Source of the DNA: Dehalococcoidales bacterium | GTDB lineage: Bacteria > Chloroflexota > Dehalococcoidia > Dehalococcoidales > UBA2162 | Assembly (NCBI GenBank): GCA_030698765.1 | Contig: JAUYMF010000145.1 | Location: 1 to 39,654 of the forward strand | DNA length: 39,654 nt | Direction: 5' to 3' | Shown here: one piece after another, positions 6,425 through 38,712 of the stretch | Layout: the number at the start of each line of letters is the position of its first letter | Numbering within the stretch: the first letter of the stretch is position 1 | Made by a program: the position numbers and the translations under genes | The notes under the pieces: model-generated | The model's input: the letters and a program-made list of their open reading frames with translations, nothing else | What the model was told of the DNA's origin: nothing | Database searches by the model: none

Positions 6425-6840
6425 AGGCGGGCAAGCAAACCTGTAAGCCGAGTTCTGTACTCCGGTTTCCCGGAGCGGTGACCATCTATCTAGCCCTGGC
6501 GTTACCGCCAGGGTCAAGCGACCAACCCGGGGACGAGGCCAGGCGCCATTTTGTCCCCCTATTCGGTCTTGCTCCAGATGGGGTTTACCCAGCCGGCTGG
6601 TCACCCAACCGCTGGTAAGCTCTTACCTCACCATTTCACCCTTACCCGCACTGGCTGCCAGCCTGCTTTATCATCACAACTGACATTTACTGTCATATAA
6701 CAGCCAGCCGCTGGCGGTATGTTTCTGTGGCACTTTCCGTAGGGTTACCCCTCCTGGGTGTTACCCAGCACCCCGCCTGGTGGAGCTCGGACTTTCCTCC
6801 CGCCTTAAGAGCGGGCGGTCACCCGGTTTACTTGACCCAC
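6425..6840 (-). ncRNA. rnpB: RNase P RNA, bacterial type A
   Basis: The minus strand carries the universal blocks GGAGGAAAGTCCGAGCTCC, AGTGCCACAGAAACATACCGCC, GGGTGAAATGGTGAGGTAAGAGC, GGTAAACCCCA, GCAAGACCGAATAGG and ACAGAACTCGGCTTACAGG. P1 pairs 6838-6825 with 6441-6429. Confidence 0.95.
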
Positions 6841-6878: not shown

Positions 6879-6887
6879 AGCCGCACC

Positions 6888-6910
6888 GGTTATTACTCAA
6901 TCTTAGTTGC
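6888..6910 (+). repeat. IS left terminal inverted repeat
   Basis: GGTTATTACTCAATCTTAGTTGC matches the reverse complement of 8626-8647 (GGTTCTACTGAATCTTAGTTGC) at 20 positions with one 1-nt gap. Confidence 0.75.
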
Positions 6911-6946
6911 TTGGCGGTGGTGAAGATGAGTAGGTGGGTAGGTAGG

Positions 6947-6955
6947 TGTTATAAT
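6947..6955 (+). promoter_or_regulatory. candidate extended -10 promoter inside the IS left end
   Basis: TGtTATAAT at 6947-6955, about 25 nt upstream of the GAGGGAG RBS of ORF 6982. Confidence 0.4.
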
Positions 6956-6981
6956 CCTCTTAAAAAGTTGAGGGAGTTATC

Positions 6982-7419
6982 ATGCCATTATACGTCATCT
7001 TCGGGCTGTCATTTTTGGCAATTATTTGTATTGGTGGCTTCGTTATGCCTCGCATTAGCTGGTGGAAGACTATTGAAGTCCCAGATAGAGCATTGGCGTA
7101 TCTCGCCCTTTTTATTGGCTTTTCTTTACTGTTCCAGCAGGTTACAGAATACAATCACGGCTTGGTATATGTGTTGTCTACAGTTGATGCCAGACAAACC
7201 ATTGACGGCTCAACAATTAACCCAAAAGTCATTGGTATATGGTGGTGGGTAATGGTTTACTTATACTGGATTTTTATAGCGTCTGCTTTGCTGGCTACCG
7301 TTGCTTTATTCAGAGGTACAGTAAAAGACATAAGGGATAGTAAGGCTAAAGACAACACGAATCAGGATAATGAGGTACTGAAACGGCTAGACAGAATAAT
7401 AGAATTATTGGAGAAGTAA
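6982..7419 (+). CDS. IS-borne hypothetical membrane protein (3-4 TM helices plus charged C-terminal helix)
   Basis: 145-aa ORF with RBS GAGGGAG 5 nt upstream. Hydrophobic segments are followed by KDIRDSKAKDNTNQDNEVLKRLDRIIELLEK. Its stop is 2 nt before the transposase ATG. Confidence 0.6.
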   Translation: MPLYVIFGLSFLAIICIGGFVMPRISWWKTIEVPDRALAYLALFIGFSLLFQQVTEYNHGLVYVLSTVDARQTIDGSTINPKVIGIWWWVMVYLYWIFIASALLATVALFRGTVKDIRDSKAKDNTNQDNEVLKRLDRIIELLEK

Positions 7420-7421
7420 CG

Positions 7422-8408
7422 ATGAGTAGTGGAGTAGTCTGTAAATACTGTCAATCCGAGAACGTTCGCAAATACGGCAAGTACAAAGAGACTCAATATT
7501 ACTACTGCAATATCTGCGAGCGTAAGTTCTCCAATCCTGGCGCGATTCCCAAGATGCAGTATTCTACTTCCAAAGTCGCCGATGCTATCTCCATGTACTT
7601 TGAGGGAATGAGCCTGAAAGAGATACGACGGAACTTTATCCAGCAACACAACGACTATATATCAGACGTGACCGTGTTGAACTGGGTAAACCGATTTACC
7701 GACCTAGCTGTGAAGGAATCTGAGAAGCACAATCCCAACGTAGGCTCAATTTGGGTAGCTGATGAAACAGTTTTGGATATAGACGGTAAGAACATTTGGC
7801 TATGGGATATCATAGACGCTAAGACCAGATTCCTGATTGCTACCCATATGTCATTCACCAGAACGTCTAACGATGCTGAACAACTAATGAAGCAGTCATA
7901 CGAGCGAACAGGTAAAATCCCCCGTGTTATCTACACGGATAAGTTGAGAGCTTACTTGGAGGGGATAGAGCGTGTGTTTGGTGCAGATACCAGACATGCC
8001 CAAGGCGGGCCGTTTGACATTGAGGACAATACAAACGCTATTGAGAGGTTTCATGGTACGCTCAAGTCCAGAACTAAGGTCATGCGTGGGTTACACACGG
8101 TAGAATCTGCTAAAAAGTATCTGGACGGTTGGCTGGTGCATTACAACTTCTTTAGACCACATATGAGCCTGAAAGACAGCACTCCGGCTAGGGCAGCTGG
8201 TATTAAGTTCCCACATAGGAACTGGAAAGACGTGTGCGAACAGCCGTTTAGGATAACAGCTAGAATACCTATGAGGGAAGCCGAGATACTACCTGATGAT
8301 GCACCTGTTACTAAAGCAATTCGTAAGGTAGTAAAGCGTAAGAAGCTACTTGTCAGACGGAAGCGGGAAGAGCCAATGACAAGTGTATTACAGATAAGGA
8401 GTAGGTGA
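7422..8408 (+). CDS. IS6-family (DDE_Tnp_IS240-like) transposase with N-terminal zinc finger
   Basis: CKYC..x..CNIC zinc finger, HTH-like segment, DDE triad candidates WVADETVLDIDG / IYTDKLRAY / NAIERFHGTLK, then HYNFFRPHMSL. Collinear with IS26 Tnp as I remember it. Confidence 0.8.
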   Translation: MSSGVVCKYCQSENVRKYGKYKETQYYYCNICERKFSNPGAIPKMQYSTSKVADAISMYFEGMSLKEIRRNFIQQHNDYISDVTVLNWVNRFTDLAVKESEKHNPNVGSIWVADETVLDIDGKNIWLWDIIDAKTRFLIATHMSFTRTSNDAEQLMKQSYERTGKIPRVIYTDKLRAYLEGIERVFGADTRHAQGGPFDIEDNTNAIERFHGTLKSRTKVMRGLHTVESAKKYLDGWLVHYNFFRPHMSLKDSTPARAAGIKFPHRNWKDVCEQPFRITARIPMREAEILPDDAPVTKAIRKVVKRKKLLVRRKREEPMTSVLQIRSR

Positions 8409-8439
8409 TGACGGGGACTGGACTCGTTAGGATACTACA

Positions 8440-8514
8440 CTACTGTAAGAACAGGATATTGACTAATTGCCAGATTAGCCATATCAGGAACAGGGACATA
8501 AGCAATCTGCTCAT
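8440..8514 (-). CDS. candidate 24-aa hydrophobic peptide (type I toxin-like), hypothetical
   Basis: ATG 8514-8512 lies 7 nt after AAAGGAGGTGA. Translation is MSRLLMSLFLIWLIWQLVNILFLQ*. Too short for the ORF track. Confidence 0.4.
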   Translation of the reverse strand: MSRLLMSLFLIWLIWQLVNILFLQ

Positions 8515-8518
8515 AGTC

Positions 8519-8560
8519 TCACCTCCTTTCACAGCGTGTGTAGCCGAAAAGGTGAGGTGA
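8519..8560 (-). promoter_or_regulatory. Shine-Dalgarno-sequestering hairpin for the small ORF
   Basis: On the minus-strand RNA, UCACCUCACCUUUUC (8560-8546) pairs with GAAAGGAGGUGA (8530-8519): 7 bp, a 2-nt bulge, then 4-5 bp, with a 15-nt loop. Confidence 0.5.
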
Positions 8561-8600
8561 TAAGTGAGCCGTCAGTACGTTGTCCCCGTCATCACCGAAT

Positions 8601-8629
8601 ATTCTAGCAGTAGGGGAATGTATGTGCAA
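8601..8629 (-). promoter_or_regulatory. candidate inward-facing promoter in the IS right end
   Basis: Minus strand TTGCAC (8629-8624, inside IR-R), 17-nt spacer, TAGAAT (8606-8601). The predicted start falls at the 13-nt arm 8594-8582. Confidence 0.45.
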
Positions 8630-8647
8630 CTAAGATTCAGTAGAACC
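8626..8647 (-). repeat. IS right terminal inverted repeat
   Basis: Reverse complement GGTTCTACTGAATCTTAGTTGC pairs with IR-L. Confidence 0.75.
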
Positions 8648-8654
8648 CCGCACC

Positions 8655-8877
8655 GGTTCTGTTTGCATTTGGTTGGTTTTATTTGTCATTGCGAGGAGTC
8701 CGCCTCCGGTGGACGACGTGGCAATCTGGGGGTAAGGGATAATTCCGCCCCCGCCGAGATTGCTTCGCCCTCGGGACTTCGGCGTGAGCTCAGTCGAACG
8801 CTGAACTCGGGCTGAAGCCTTCCGCCTGTGGCGGAATGGTATCGTAATGACACCGCCAACCAAAACCGAATAATACC
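8655..8877 (-). mobile_element. MITE-like structured repeat, copy A
   Basis: Reverse complement aligns end to end with 16979-17210. A ~125-nt block has 5 mismatches, followed by two conserved stems with replaced loops. Flanked by GCCGCACC (split by the IS) and GCCGCACG. Confidence 0.75.
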
Positions 8878-9034
8878 GCCGCACGTCCTTGCACTTCAGT
8901 CTCCGGTGACGCTATTAACAGACAGGTGACATTATTAACGCTGTTTCCTTTCAGGAGGGTTCAGGAAGAGGAGCGAAGCCCCTCTTATACTCCCCTGATA
9001 ACCACAGAGGCACCACCGTTCAGGTATCCCAATA

Positions 9035-16978: not shown

Positions 16979-17210
16979 GGTATTATTCGGTTTTGGTTGG
17001 AGGTGTCATTGCGAAACCATTCCGCTATAGGCGGAAGGCTTCAGCCCGAGTTCAGCGTTCGACTGAGCTCACGCCGAAGTCCCGAGGGCGAAGCAATCTG
17101 TGTGTGGGGAAGGGTGCCCCTCACTTCTCAGATTGCCGCGTCGCGGAGTTTACACTGAGCGAAGAGAATGTGCTCCTCGCAATGACAAATAAAACCAACC
17201 AAACAGAACC
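16979..17210 (+). mobile_element. MITE-like structured repeat, copy B
   Basis: Homologous to copy A. ~35-nt imperfect terminal inverted repeats (GGTATTATTCGGTTTTGGTTGG..TGTCATTGCGA versus GGTTCTGTTTGGTTGGTTTTATTTGTCATTGCGA). Perfect 8-bp direct repeat AGATTTAT at 16971-16978 and 17211-17218. Confidence 0.8.
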
Positions 17211-17259
17211 AGATTTATCGTGGCATAGAAGCCGTAGGATATATAATATTTAGGAAATG

Positions 17260-31273: not shown

Positions 31274-31387
31274 ATTGTCTATCTGTCCCCTGTGCATTGT
31301 TCGTTTTGCTTGCGGAATGCCTATTTTGCTCGATTTTTCAATATTCATCTTGTTTTCCTTGATATTTATTTCATTGTAACCTATATT
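31274..31387 (+). promoter_or_regulatory. conserved upstream region copy 1 with promoter
   Basis: ~115 bp nearly identical to 36657-36771. TTGATA 31359-31364, 17-nt spacer, TATATT 31382-31387. Confidence 0.6.
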
Positions 31388-31589
31388 CTAACATTAATAG
31401 TGCGAATTGCTATTTCAATATTGCCACATCAGGGAACCGGAATGCTGTACGATACCACTTTCCGGTTGAAATGACAGGATAGAACTCCCTGTCCTGAATC
31501 CCCCCTGATAATCAAGCCAGGTAGCAGACTGAACTATTAACAAAAAAGAGTAGCAAAGGGGGAATTATCCCTTAGAAGGAGGAAAAAGG

Positions 31590-33470
31590 ATGAAAAGGGA
31601 AACCGTCTGGTTGATGGTGAGTTGCATGGTAGTATTATCCATGGTGCTTTCAGCCTGCGCCCCGGCAGCCCCGACGACGCCAACTTCACCGGCAACACCA
31701 ACCGCACCGACTACACCGGTTACGCCGACGACGCCAGCTACATCAACGACCCCGACAACACCAACGACGCCCGGTGTTGAGATGGTACAGGACTCGTTGG
31801 GTAGAACAGTAGAAAAGCCCCGCTACGGCGGTACATTTACTATTGCCCTCGACCAGGACACGCGGAATCTTGATGCGACCCTTGAACATCCTTATAACAC
31901 CGAGACACTCACACTCACCCATGAGAGATTCACCATCGGAGACTTTCTCAAGGGACCCCTAGGTACCGAGGAAGTAAGCTGGTGGGGTAGCGTAGACATA
32001 GTGGAATTCTATGTTGGTAAACTGGCAGAAAGCTGGGAATTTGTTGACAATGAGACCCTTGTATTTAATATCCGAAAGGGGATACACTGGGCACTTGACC
32101 CCGGCAATGAAGCCAGTCGGTTAGTAGCGGGGAGAGAGTTAACCGCCGACGATGTTGTCTTTGCTCTTGAGCGCATGTACCGGCATCCCAAAAGCTGGGC
32201 ATTACCCAGGACCCATGAGGAAGAAAGGCCTGTATCAATAACAGCCCCGGACAAATATGCCGTTGTTCTGAAGAGCAAGCCGGGGCTGGAAAGCGGGGCC
32301 TACCTCATGGCGGAACTGCCTTTAGGTATGTTTCAGATGACCAATCCTCCGGAAACATACCAGAAATATGGAGATGATGTCATGAAGGACTGGAGGAACC
32401 ATGTTGGCACCGGCCCGTTCATGATAACAGACTATCTGCCGGGAAGCGCGGCCACCTTTATCAGAAACCCCAATTACTGGGGCAAGCACCCCCTCTTCCC
32501 GGAGGACACCATGCCCTATATAGACGGTGTAAAGTTCCTGATTATTCCGGACCTGTCCACACGTATGGCGGCATTACGGACAGCCAAGATTGACCATAGC
32601 GGAGGTGGTAAGAGTCCCGTTCCTCTGGAACAGGCAGAACCCCTGCTGAGGACAACGCCGATAGAGGCGATGCCGATTATCATCAGGAGTCCCGAGGCCC
32701 TGCGTTTTAAGGTGAATGACCCCGCTCTACCTTCTTACGATGTGCGGGTCAGGCAGGCAATCGCCTTGGCGATAGACCAGCCGACGATAATGCAGGATAT
32801 GTACGGCGGCAGGTCCACGCTGCCCAATTATCCTATTATGCCGAACCTGGAATACATGGGGATGCATACTTCGCTTGAAGAACTGCCAGCCAGTGTCAGA
32901 GAGCTTTTTGAGTACCACCCGGACAAGGCAAAACAGCTTCTGACTGAGGCTGGCTATCCCAACGGGCTTAAGATAGAAGTAGTAACTATGGCACCATACG
33001 TCGATAACTTGTCAGTGCTCAAAGACCAGTTGTCCAAGGTGGGTGTTGAACTGGTAATCGATGTTAAGGAACGGGGAGTATTCCTTTCTCTGACACAGGC
33101 CAGGAACCAGAATAATGCCGCTTTTACTACCGTAACCAGCATTTCGCCCTTTGCTTTTCAGTACTTCGCGCCCGATGATTTGCCAAACATAAATGGCATT
33201 AACGACCCGGTAGCAAACGAGGCCTGGGAAAAGTTTAAACCACTCGCGATATCAGATAGACCCGCGGCTGAAGCGATACTTAAGCCCTTCTTCGCGTATG
33301 CTCTGGAGCAAGCCTGGAACATCGAGTTCCCGGCGCCACATTCCTTCTACATGTGGTGGCCGTGGGTAAAACTGCACAATGGAGATGTCAGTCTCGGCAG
33401 AAGTACTAACCACCACTTTATTCAGTACATCTGGATTGACCAGGAATTGAAGAAGTCCATGGGTTACTGA
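31590..33470 (+). CDS. family-5 (Opp/Dpp-type) ABC substrate-binding lipoprotein, paralogue 1
   Basis: AAGGAGG RBS, lipobox LSAC, Pro/Thr-rich linker, then an SBP_bac_5-like body (YGGTFT..., NPNYWGK, AKQLLTEAGYPNG). No permease or ATPase gene nearby. Confidence 0.8.
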   Translation: MKRETVWLMVSCMVVLSMVLSACAPAAPTTPTSPATPTAPTTPVTPTTPATSTTPTTPTTPGVEMVQDSLGRTVEKPRYGGTFTIALDQDTRNLDATLEHPYNTETLTLTHERFTIGDFLKGPLGTEEVSWWGSVDIVEFYVGKLAESWEFVDNETLVFNIRKGIHWALDPGNEASRLVAGRELTADDVVFALERMYRHPKSWALPRTHEEERPVSITAPDKYAVVLKSKPGLESGAYLMAELPLGMFQMTNPPETYQKYGDDVMKDWRNHVGTGPFMITDYLPGSAATFIRNPNYWGKHPLFPEDTMPYIDGVKFLIIPDLSTRMAALRTAKIDHSGGGKSPVPLEQAEPLLRTTPIEAMPIIIRSPEALRFKVNDPALPSYDVRVRQAIALAIDQPTIMQDMYGGRSTLPNYPIMPNLEYMGMHTSLEELPASVRELFEYHPDKAKQLLTEAGYPNGLKIEVVTMAPYVDNLSVLKDQLSKVGVELVIDVKERGVFLSLTQARNQNNAAFTTVTSISPFAFQYFAPDDLPNINGINDPVANEAWEKFKPLAISDRPAAEAILKPFFAYALEQAWNIEFPAPHSFYMWWPWVKLHNGDVSLGRSTNHHFIQYIWIDQELKKSMGY

Positions 33471-36656: not shown

Positions 36657-36771
36657 ATTGTCTATCTGTCCCCTATGCATTGTTCATTTTGCTTAGATAA
36701 AACATCTATTTGCTTGATTTTTCAATATCCATCTTGTTTTCCTTGATATTTTTTGCATTACAGTATATATT
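36657..36771 (+). promoter_or_regulatory. conserved upstream region copy 2 with promoter
   Basis: Aligns with 31274-31387. TTGATA 36743-36748, 17-nt spacer, TATATT 36766-36771. Confidence 0.6.
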
Positions 36772-36843
36772 GTTCCCCATATCGAATTTCTAGGAAAGTA
36801 AGAATGGTCATCTGCAATAGCTGACCTGAAGGAGGAGAAAGGG

Positions 36844-38712
36844 ATGAGAAAGAAAATTGGTTGGTTATTAATGAGTGGTCTGGTGGTTTCATCACTGGTG
36901 ATGGCATCATGCGCTCCAACCACGCCGACAACACCAACCACACCGACAACACCAACCACGCCCACTACACCCGCTACGCCAACCACACCGGCGGCACCCA
37001 TAACGCCCGCACCAACCGCGCCAGCAGCCCCAACAACAGAAGCGCCCAAATATGGCGGGGTATTAAACGTTGCTCCGATAGCAGGACTTGGGCCAATCTT
37101 TGACCCTATTAAACACACCAGTAGTCCAGCCGGGTTGCTGTCACTGGCTCAAACTAACGAGAACTTGATGGAAGGGGACTGGACCAAGGGTGCGGCGGGA
37201 AGCAATGAGAATGACTGGCTCACCTATACACCTATTCTTAAACATCTTCAACCTAATCTGGCGGAGAGTTGGGAAGTTATTGATGAGGAGACCATCATTT
37301 GGCACATCCGCAAAGGAGTCCATTACGGCCTTAACCCAAACAGTGAGGCGAGCCGCCTAGCTAACGGCCGGGAGCTAGATGCCGAAGATGTGGTCTTTTC
37401 TGTTTACTCGATGTATGAGGCGCCCAAGGCTCCGTACCTTATACGGTACTCTAATCCGGTGGAACGGCCGGTAGCGATCACAGCTTCTGACAAATACACT
37501 GTGGTCGTCAAGGTAACCAGAGGATACTTACCCGGCATATTCCAGAGAATGGCTAGCTCTTTACTCATATTGCCCCGTGATGTATATCAGCAATACGGCA
37601 ATATGCTGGACTGGAGAAACTCTGTTGGTACCGGACCATACATGCTGGTGGATGTTGTTCCTGATAGTACCGGCACCTTCATCAGGAATCCTAATTACTG
37701 GCAGACGGACCCTGTTGGCCCGGGGAAAGATAACCAGTTACCCTACCCTGATGGCATCAAGTTTTTCCTCATAAAAGATAAGTCTACGCGTTTGGCGGCA
37801 TTTCGTACCGGTAAGATTGACCTTATTGGCGAGGGGACGAATACACTTCTGTTAGAGGATGTTGCTAGTTTAGAGACAAGCGTTCGTAACCTGTCAAAGA
37901 AGAATGTCCCCGGGTCTCCCTACGGCGTAAGATTTAGAATGGACCGGCCGGAGGCCCCTTATTTTGATATCAGGGTACGACAGGCGTTGAATATGGCAAT
38001 AGACCGCGAAGCTATAGTGAGGGACTACTATCAAGGTAATGGTTTGCCAACTGACTACCCGATACAGTCTTTCCGGATTTGGATTAGTATGGGAGTAGAC
38101 CGACCGTTTGAGGAGTGGCCTGAAGAGTACCGGGAGCGTTATGTATATAACCCGGAAAAAGCGAAACAGCTGCTGACTGAAGCTGGATATTCCGATGGTT
38201 TCAAGATGGAAGTGCTTGTAAGTGCTCGTGAACAGACCTATATTGATGATTTAATGATAATCCAAGAATACTGGTCCAAAATCGGCATTGATATGATAAT
38301 AGATGTGAGGGAGCACGCTGTTTTCTCATCTATTTCTGCAGGTAAGACGCACAAAGATGCTGTATATAGTGGTGTTGGTGATGGCTCACTTTATAGCTGG
38401 GAAAGCTATCGACCAGGCGAGCCGAGTAATACGTATGTGCTTGACGACCCGGTAATTAATCAGGGTATTGACGAATTCGCCAGATATGTATTTCTGAACG
38501 ACGACAAGGCTTATGAGATAGCGGCAGAGACCTATAATTACATTGCTAAGCAAGCTTATGTGGTCGATTTCCCGACAGCATATACCTATACTCTGTGGTG
38601 GCCCTGGTTAAAGAATTACCATGGTGAGTATGTGCTAGGTACTTCTAATAACTTTGGTTTTACCAAGTATATCTGGATTGACCAGGATCTCAAGCGGTCA
38701 ATGGGGTACTAG
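36844..38712 (+). CDS. family-5 ABC substrate-binding lipoprotein, paralogue 2
   Basis: Lipobox MASC, (TPTTP)n linker, same body and C-terminal end (YIWIDQDLKRSMGY) as paralogue 1. Confidence 0.8.
   Translation: MRKKIGWLLMSGLVVSSLVMASCAPTTPTTPTTPTTPTTPTTPATPTTPAAPITPAPTAPAAPTTEAPKYGGVLNVAPIAGLGPIFDPIKHTSSPAGLLSLAQTNENLMEGDWTKGAAGSNENDWLTYTPILKHLQPNLAESWEVIDEETIIWHIRKGVHYGLNPNSEASRLANGRELDAEDVVFSVYSMYEAPKAPYLIRYSNPVERPVAITASDKYTVVVKVTRGYLPGIFQRMASSLLILPRDVYQQYGNMLDWRNSVGTGPYMLVDVVPDSTGTFIRNPNYWQTDPVGPGKDNQLPYPDGIKFFLIKDKSTRLAAFRTGKIDLIGEGTNTLLLEDVASLETSVRNLSKKNVPGSPYGVRFRMDRPEAPYFDIRVRQALNMAIDREAIVRDYYQGNGLPTDYPIQSFRIWISMGVDRPFEEWPEEYRERYVYNPEKAKQLLTEAGYSDGFKMEVLVSAREQTYIDDLMIIQEYWSKIGIDMIIDVREHAVFSSISAGKTHKDAVYSGVGDGSLYSWESYRPGEPSNTYVLDDPVINQGIDEFARYVFLNDDKAYEIAAETYNYIAKQAYVVDFPTAYTYTLWWPWLKNYHGEYVLGTSNNFGFTKYIWIDQDLKRSMGY

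Follow-up and report, generated by a model that had tools for sequence, protein, structure and literature searches.

A type-I-toxin-like peptide cassette carried as optional cargo by IS6-family elements of Dehalococcoidia

Insertion sequences (ISs) are usually defined as carrying transposition functions only. A 39,654-nucleotide contig of a Dehalococcoidales bacterium (JAUYMF010000145.1 of assembly GCA_030698765.1; this whole stretch is called the window, and coordinates refer to it unless a locus is named) raises the question of what else such an element can hold. In this contig, the stop codon of an IS6-family transposase and the right inverted repeat (IRR) of the element are separated by DNA that encodes, on the minus strand and convergent with the transposase, a hydrophobic peptide of 24 residues. 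A preliminary description of the window had read this DNA as a type I toxin–antitoxin (TA)-like module and as an integral part of the IS. We find that window 8404–8606 (minus) is a ~200-bp gene cassette, complete in itself, and an optional cargo of IS6-family elements in Dehalococcoidia. Judged by sequence comparison, it is a real, conserved and mobile cargo gene with a type-I-toxin-like architecture, from which its function is inferred.

The cassette is framed by a perfect 15-nucleotide (nt) inverted repeat, GGTGATGACGGGGAC on the left and its exact complement on the right (Table 1). Besides this pair of arms, no inverted repeat between 6800 and 9200 is perfect beyond 12 nt, and by our rough estimate a perfect 15-nt repeat within ~200 nt would occur by chance with a probability of ~1e-5. 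The arms had been described as 13 nt long and perfectly complementary; the complementarity is as stated, the length is 15 nt. Their overlap with the transposase gene is also as described, with the stop codon TGA (8406–8408) falling within the left arm. Between the arms lies the 24-codon open reading frame (ORF), present where it had been placed and given in the ORF listing as a 30-amino-acid (aa) GTG-started ORF at 8532–8440. The peptide has an arginine at position 3 followed by a 20-residue hydrophobic stretch, with a best 17-residue Kyte–Doolittle window of 2.15; it is thus shorter than 60 aa, hydrophobic and predicted to form one transmembrane (TM) helix, as are type I toxins. The strong Shine–Dalgarno (SD) sequence 7 nt before the start codon is present, and folding bears out its hairpin with an upstream anti-SD. 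A six-codon mini-ORF (AUG ACG GGG ACA ACG UAC UGA; 8592–8572, minus) begins within the 5′ arm, its start at or beside the predicted transcript start; it is open with the same stop in all four sequence variants described below (MTGTTY / MTGATY / MTGTAY) and it may either follow from the arm sequence as a by-product or encode a leaderless leader peptide.

Table 1. Coordinates of the cassette and of the element that carries it.
Feature	Window positions	Strand	Remarks and source
5′ arm GGUGAUGACGGGGAC	8582–8596	minus	Perfect 15-nt inverted repeat; at predicted transcript start
3′ arm GUCCCCGUCAUCACC	8404–8418	minus	Inverted-repeat partner of 5′ arm; overlaps transposase stop on opposite strand
Toxin-like ORF MSRLLMSLFLIWLIWQLVNILFLQ	8440–8514	minus	24 codons + stop; single hydrophobic helix; ORF list
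SD region AGGAGGUGAG	8518–8527	minus	GGAGG at 8526–8522, 7 nt before AUG
Anti-SD CUCACCUUUU	8547–8556	minus	Pairs with 8527–8518 in all four variants
3′ untranslated region (UTR)	8419–8439	minus	21 nt, invariant in four variants
−35-like hexamer TTGCAC	8624–8629	minus	4/6 nt inside IRR (8626–8647)
−10 hexamer TAGAAT	8601–8606	minus	TGC just before it (extended −10); 17 nt from TTGCAC
Complete IS6-family element, type A	6889–8647	plus	1759 bp; three genes and, in addition, the cassette; termini from flank comparison of loci L047–L051
Left inverted repeat (IRL)	6889–6910		Inverted-repeat listing, flank comparison
IRR GCAACTAAGATTCAGTAGAACC	8626–8647	plus	Inverted-repeat listing, flank comparison
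Left target-site duplication (TSD) CCGCACCG	6881–6888		8 bp; direct repeat 6881–6891 / 8648–8658
Right TSD CCGCACCG	8648–8655		8 bp; same direct repeat
IS6-family DDE transposase	7422–8408	plus	328 aa; PF13610, E = 4.4e-20
145-aa membrane ORF, passenger gene 1	6982–7419	plus	Upstream of transposase; ORF list

Is this segment part of the IS? The distance between transposase stop and IRR is 217 nt in the window, as opposed to 7–10 nt in L001, L003, L004, L006 and L007 (related loci are numbered with the prefix L) and 0–5 nt in L026, L028 and L030, elements of a different IS6 lineage that we call type B. Globally, this right-end slot is empty (0–10 nt) in 8 relatives and holds 217–780 nt of mostly unrelated DNA in 23. 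In the closest relatives, L047 and L048 (87–88% transposase identity), homology to the window ends at about 8398 and resumes at 8624. Because the slot is variable or empty in relatives, the cassette is, on this sequence comparison, one interchangeable cargo among many, and the claim that it is integral to the IS does not hold. What is a family trait is a right-end ORF, small and hydrophobic, that converges on the transposase gene: about 15 of the 23 cargo-bearing relatives encode on the minus strand a small membrane protein of 47–107 aa, beginning 15–55 nt inside the IRR, its start often directly preceded by a TATAAT-like box, a leaderless-like arrangement. Some of these cargoes form conserved families, with 50–88% identity among L049, L050 and L002 and 90% between L047 and L048; ten other cargo proteins gave sub-threshold matches only in Pfam. 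The cargo slot was seen at the right ends of L002, L025, L027, L029, L031–L033, L035–L037, L047–L049 and L054, and there is often, in addition, a small TM ORF that runs in the direction of the transposase and overlaps its stop. The transposase end of L054, which lacks the cassette, reads AGGAGTAGGGGATGATGGGCG (2290–2320 of that locus), close to AGGAGTAGGTGATGACGGGGAC in the window, which makes some of the left arm an original piece of the type-A transposase end and of its SD/start junction. These sequences suggest that the cassette arose in type A, the lineage of the window element, and later moved to type B.

Four further loci carry the same cassette. L050 was found by scanning metagenomes for both arms at matching spacing, and the translation of a 51-aa plus-strand frame, used as query, led through P0121 and P0122 to L051, L052 and L053. 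That plus-strand ORF (8405–8560, MMTGTGLVRILHYC..., called by gene finders as P0121/P0122) was rejected as a gene and is taken as an annotation artefact: it is broken by −2 and −1 indels, and its lengths of 50, 51, 70 and 74 aa go with unrelated C termini and no synonymous excess (5/12 transitions synonymous, p = 0.37). The five copies represent four distinct sequences, 88–98% identical in DNA over ~200 nt, and every copy lies in the same orientation between the end of a plus-strand gene and the IRR, convergent with that gene. The IS at L051 is of the same type as that of the window and has inserted between different flanks. The elements inserted at L052 and L053 are of type B, with a transposase only 46% identical and with inverted repeats (GGTTTTGTTTGCATTTGGTTGG) unlike those of type A. 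An 8-bp duplication (TATTATTT) at L052 indicates that the cassette transposes inside the element, and its near-unchanged sequence in lineages whose transposases are 46% identical indicates that it has moved between them. The comparison thus describes a cassette that is far more conserved than its carriers, is exchanged between IS lineages and transposes with them.

An alternative is that the 193-bp segment, with its perfect 15-bp terminal inverted repeats, is a miniature inverted-repeat transposable element (MITE)-like insertion that landed in the IS, or a segment inverted by a recombinase, with no gene function in either case. The segment is an insertion relative to the five loci with 7–10 nt in its place, and it occurs in two unrelated IS lineages. 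We nevertheless regard this explanation as very improbable. No target duplication flanks the arms, the homology runs past the 5′ arm through the −10 hexamer, the window holds a single copy in its 39.6 kb, and part of the left arm belongs to the type-A transposase end. A MITE was rejected for want of a TSD and of any non-IS context, and an invertible segment on the uniform orientation of the copies: all five sit at an IS right end, with none elsewhere or inverted.

What has been conserved within the cassette is both the peptide and the nucleic acid. The peptide is identical in the window lineage and in L052/L053 despite three synonymous changes; L051 differs by I11M, and L050 by S2G, I11V and a stop at W12, with five synonymous changes besides. 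Read in the ORF frame, synonymous changes make up 8 of the 12 transitions where 38% would be expected, giving p = 0.04 (0.07 when one shared change enters the count a single time). A perfect GGAGG stands at ideal spacing in three of the four variants, and in the fourth the SD is still paired. None of the 21 columns of the 3′ UTR varies, compared with 14–28% in other segments, and the 3′ arm is nearly invariant; this comparison points to a constraint on the nucleic acid at the 3′ end. The promoter-like pattern is kept as well. The site TTGCAC-17-TAGAAT proposed in the preliminary description is present and its spacing is conserved, with the qualification that four bases of the −35, rather than all six, are inside the IRR and two are outside; a promoter scan reads the same site as TGCACA-16-TAGAAT (9/12) with a TG-extended −10. 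The −35 counterpart is TTGCAC in L050 and L051 and TTGCAT in the different IRR of L052 and L053, always 17 nt from a −10 of TAGAAT, TAAAAT or TACAAT, so the pattern persists though two different IRRs supply the −35. The distance from −10 to 5′ arm is almost fixed (7 nt in the window and L051, 6 in L050, 8 in L052).

The predicted minus-strand RNA is highly structured. A 201-nt transcript folds with −76.4 kcal/mol (z = −5.2), and 0/200 shuffles do as well; the plus-strand RNA of the cassette folds with −70.4 kcal/mol (z = −4.1), and the minus RNA is the more stable by 4–11 kcal/mol in all four variants. In the consensus fold of the four variants, positions 5–19 pair with 183–197 to form a long stem, of 15 base pairs in the window and 13 in L052, that would close the mRNA between its 5′ and 3′ ends over a long distance. 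The SD is paired in the minimum-free-energy (MFE) and consensus structures, with an unpaired probability of 0.05 in the window and 0.05–0.17 across the variants, and its hairpin is paired in 100% of cells across the four. In silico, then, the primary transcript would be inert through SD sequestration, as in type I systems. The long stem shows one compensatory pair (U–A to C–G) and one A–U to G–U change, both in L052; the latter would be A·C on the plus RNA, so that the pair is possible only on the minus RNA.

As a mechanism for this arrangement we tentatively favour the following, which we regard as possible rather than probable: a cargo cassette with an inward promoter, a self-silenced mRNA, a membrane peptide and an antisense RNA made by read-through. 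Transcription would be driven inward by a −35-like hexamer placed across the inner edge of the IRR and by the −10 of the cassette, both conserved, and would yield an RNA of ~190 nt starting at the 5′ arm near 8594. This RNA, predicted to be closed end to end by the 13–15-bp stem and to bury its SD in the local hairpin, would be a stable, untranslatable primary transcript. Processing that removes or opens the anti-SD would then allow the 24-residue single-helix membrane peptide to be made, which, if it behaves as type I toxins do, would cause membrane damage or depolarisation. No terminator-like site was found between the transposase and the IRR in a scan of the window and L052, so transposase read-through RNA would be the most obvious antisense partner. 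A cassette of this kind may help IS-bearing DNA to be retained. A weak plus-strand promoter candidate, ATGACG-17-GATACT (8408–8436, 8/12, below the scan threshold and read by eye), lies within the invariant 3′ UTR and 3′ arm; going by its sequence, it could drive an antisense RNA across the ORF. We rejected the idea that transposase translation is under antisense control: the cassette shares 5 nt with the transposase ORF in type A and none in type B.

Several results weigh against a self-silenced toxin gene. The first concerns activation. The small TM peptide, the sequestered SD and the 5′–3′ stem that had been listed as hallmarks of type I toxin mRNAs are all present, but the SD remains paired when the 3′ or the 5′ arm is deleted in silico, and 3′ truncations leave its unpaired probability at 0.05–0.16, so that trimming of the 3′ end would not refold the RNA and expose it. 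Since the SD stays paired after arm removal, any activation should come from removal or opening of the anti-SD, and in these models the likelier role of the closing stem is in stability or antisense recognition. Second, the preliminary description had proposed a fold and covariation analysis across copies. The block is conserved as a unit in four other loci; the covariation is not significant, 236/500 shuffles doing equally well, and four close sequences cannot give statistical covariation. The strand asymmetry of G·U over A·C is 8 kept to 7 broken on the window's own MFE structure (14 to 5 on the RNAalifold structure, a count biased by the fitting). Third, the promoter-like site as a single match is at chance level, with 5 sites against 3.3 ± 1.6 in shuffles, and its −35 is weak, at 3–4 of 6 bases. 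Fourth, scanning the window and L052 gave no dedicated plus-strand promoter within the cassette at threshold, so an antisense antitoxin with its own promoter, the usual partner in type I systems, was not found. Fifth, the peptide matched 0 Pfam families at E ≤ 0.1, and phmmer with the 30-aa ORF returned 0 matches among 1.84 billion representative proteins. The cassette is also rare: searched over 330 kb of related loci, a covariance model built from the four variants recovered the five copies already described and no divergent relative, and a scan of viral contigs for the invariant 32-mer gave 0 matches. Finally, the benefit of ‘addiction’ to a chromosomal, replicatively transposing IS is not obvious.

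A further point on the same side is L050, in which codon 12 is changed from TGG to TAG while both arms remain perfect. The preliminary description had reasoned that a disrupted ORF with persisting stems would count against a toxin; this pattern occurs in L050, through its nonsense codon, and in none of the three other variants. It raises the alternative that the structured RNA is the product and the ORF incidental, the minus RNA acting as an antisense or decoy, or the fold being a 3′ structure of the transposase mRNA; such an RNA might stabilise or destabilise that mRNA, or insulate the IS from outside transcription. The 36 nt of 3′ UTR and 3′ arm, almost invariant and more conserved than the ORF, fit this account, as do the overlap of the left arm with the transposase stop and the folding of both strands far beyond their shuffles. 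It fails to explain why synonymous changes are in excess and the peptide is the same in both lineages, why the SD is perfect and well spaced, or why the minus RNA is consistently the more stable; the type-B cassette does not overlap the transposase ORF and so cannot act on transposase translation, and Rfam gave no match (whole window at the gathering threshold; 8350–8700 at E ≤ 10). L050 itself looks like a decaying remnant. It holds most of the pair-breaking substitutions, and its promoter falls below the scan threshold. At 554–1480 this locus consists of two tandem units of cargo and IRR with no transposase, first the cassette beside a 94-aa membrane ORF, then an L049-type convergent pair of small ORFs with its own IRR-like end. 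L050 keeps the RNA-only alternative alive, at a level that we consider quite unlikely, and does not outweigh peptide conservation in the three intact variants.

If the peptide is the product, must it be toxic? Among the cargoes of these ISs, the ORF could be a gene for a small, non-toxic membrane protein whose role is accessory (modulation of a membrane complex, exclusion or benefit to the host, for instance), with the leader keeping expression low. This is the alternative that we rank highest, while still placing it on the unlikely side. The slot holds diverse convergent membrane ORFs that are conserved at 50–90% identity and match no known family, the peptide of the cassette is likewise conserved, and no antitoxin was found. 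The design of the cassette argues for toxicity, however. Whereas the other cargoes are leaderless-like, with TATAAT just upstream of their ATG, the cassette has an 80-nt leader that buries a perfect SD, together with an end-to-end stem, which is the typical cost-control design of toxic peptides; moreover, 24 residues without a soluble part leave little room for a specific function.

How does the putative toxin gene compare with known systems? By homology it joins none of the known toxin families (Hok_Gef, Ldr, Fst, Ibs, TisB and others), and on this sequence evidence it belongs to no known toxin family. By analogy of architecture, its closest parallel is aapA1/IsoA1, with hok/sok also close. 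The aapA1/IsoA1 locus of Helicobacter pylori has an mRNA of ~200 nt, a toxin of ~30 aa, a 5′–3′ folding lock and a sequestered SD; it is regulated mainly by mRNA folding, and its full-length transcript is translationally inert (PMC5416894, PMC6733600). The cassette resembles it in RNA length, peptide size and, in silico, in 5′–3′ closure and SD sequestration. The two differ in that aapA1 is countered by IsoA1, an antisense RNA dedicated to it and expressed from a separate promoter, none being found for the cassette, and in that 3′ trimming frees the SD of aapA1, whereas the anti-SD hairpin of the cassette stays closed after truncation. There is no sequence similarity between them, and the cassette lies in Dehalococcoidia, inside an IS.

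The hok/sok system of plasmid R1 combines a small membrane peptide with fold-back (fbi) 5′–3′ pairing and a stable, inactive primary transcript. As with hok/sok, the cassette would pair a small membrane peptide with end-to-end closure and resides on mobile DNA with a proposed stabilising role. However, hok has an overlapping mok frame, tac and ucb elements, the Sok RNA, a peptide of 50–52 aa and an mRNA of ~400 nt, and the cassette peptide has no Pfam Hok_Gef match. In contrast to hok as well as aapA1, the cassette also keeps its SD paired in silico once the 3′ arm is taken away. In Escherichia coli, ISs interrupt chromosomal hok loci rather than carry them. The primary transcripts of tisB, zorO, dinQ and shoB are inert owing to a long, structured 5′ UTR, and their toxins are hydrophobic peptides of 26–29 aa. 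The cassette is similar to tisB, zorO and dinQ in that its SD is predicted to be exposed only by removal of the anti-SD, which fits 5′-processing-dependent translation; these systems and shoB differ from it in having trans-encoded or divergently encoded small RNA antitoxins and no end-to-end stem, and they share no homology with it.

For a TA module inside a transposable unit, the closest conceptual precedent is provided by Tn3-family transposons, which embed TA pairs beside their transposition genes, pairs proposed to benefit the element (PMC7157771). Those are type II protein–protein pairs near the res site of large transposons, as opposed to one small ORF with presumed RNA-level control in an IS6 element. 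In the literature we found no report of a type I TA module in an IS, and the reviews that we read make no mention of one.

The carrier has an IS240/IS26-type DDE transposase (DDE_Tnp_IS240), short terminal inverted repeats and an 8-bp target duplication, as do IS6 and IS26, and 8-bp TSDs are also present at L047, L048, L049 and L052. The transposase has 1777 homologues, annotated as IS6 family transposase and chiefly from metagenome bins of Dehalococcoidia and Chloroflexota, and its N terminus bears a CxxC zinc-finger-like extension. In the IS6 family, such zinc-finger N-terminal extensions occur in some clades, the ends of elements supply −35 hexamers, and ISDsp3 of Dehalococcoides is the only member listed with a passenger gene (PMC7986276). 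A typical IS6 −35 acts outward on a neighbouring gene, whereas the sequence places the one described here so that it would act inward, toward the cargo. Unlike a typical IS6 element, compact at ~0.8 kb with a single ORF, the elements analysed here measure 1.6–2.9 kb and add an upstream membrane ORF and a variable right-end cargo slot. With a 145-aa membrane ORF beside its transposase, the window element is counted as a passenger-carrying IS, like ISDsp3; this ORF has a weak DUF4083 match (E = 2e-4, below the cut-off). Every complete relative has a membrane ORF between IRL and transposase that overlaps the transposase start (for example L047 312–983, L048 339–665 and L052 2732–3055). These ORFs are mutually non-homologous, and several share a TM segment followed by an acidic/basic helix of the ‘RLDxIxELL’ type.

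The surroundings of the element contain other features. Bacterial RNase P RNA class A (RF00010, 299.7 bits) is encoded at 6428–6834 (minus), and the type-A IS has landed 54 nt upstream of the 5′ end of this RNA, immediately past a promoter-like TTGACT-17-TAAACT (6878–6850). A MITE-like element of ~224 bp, distinct from the cassette, has two copies, at 8655–8878 and, inverted, at ~16981–17213; its termini (GGTTCTGTTTGCATTTGGTTGG ... CCAACCAAAACCGAATAATACC) match type-B IS6 inverted repeats, and the first copy has GCCGCAC(C/G) at its flanks. The left boundary of that copy is exactly where the type-A IS lies, so the two target duplications overlap. Further away, 31274–33468 and 36657–38710 are paralogous segments ~5.3 kb apart with patches of 79–95% identity, each containing a 9-nt tandem-repeat array (31662–31772 and 36898–37017) that is CCG/ACC-rich, a Pro/Thr-type linker on one strand.

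What would the cassette mean for IS6 biology? In dozens of IS6 relatives the content of the right-end slot varies, and typically it encodes a small membrane protein in convergent orientation. The wider proposal would be that this is a dedicated cargo slot in which the −35 of the inverted repeat drives small membrane-protein genes, one of them a hok/aapA1-style toxin that is silenced by transposase read-through and stabilises the IS or its replicon, in a cassette that has hopped between lineages; taken as a whole, we consider this unlikely. Should the peptide prove toxic, an IS would harbour a type I TA-like module, extending the principle of TA as part of the transposition module from the type II pairs of Tn3 transposons to the simplest mobile elements and offering a testable case of a transposase mRNA doubling as antitoxin. 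If the read-through antitoxin is real, silencing of the toxin would be coupled to an intact, transcribed transposase gene. If the peptide is not toxic, the slot would still reveal small membrane proteins of a new class, carried by ISs, in a phylum that matters for the environment and is difficult to culture.

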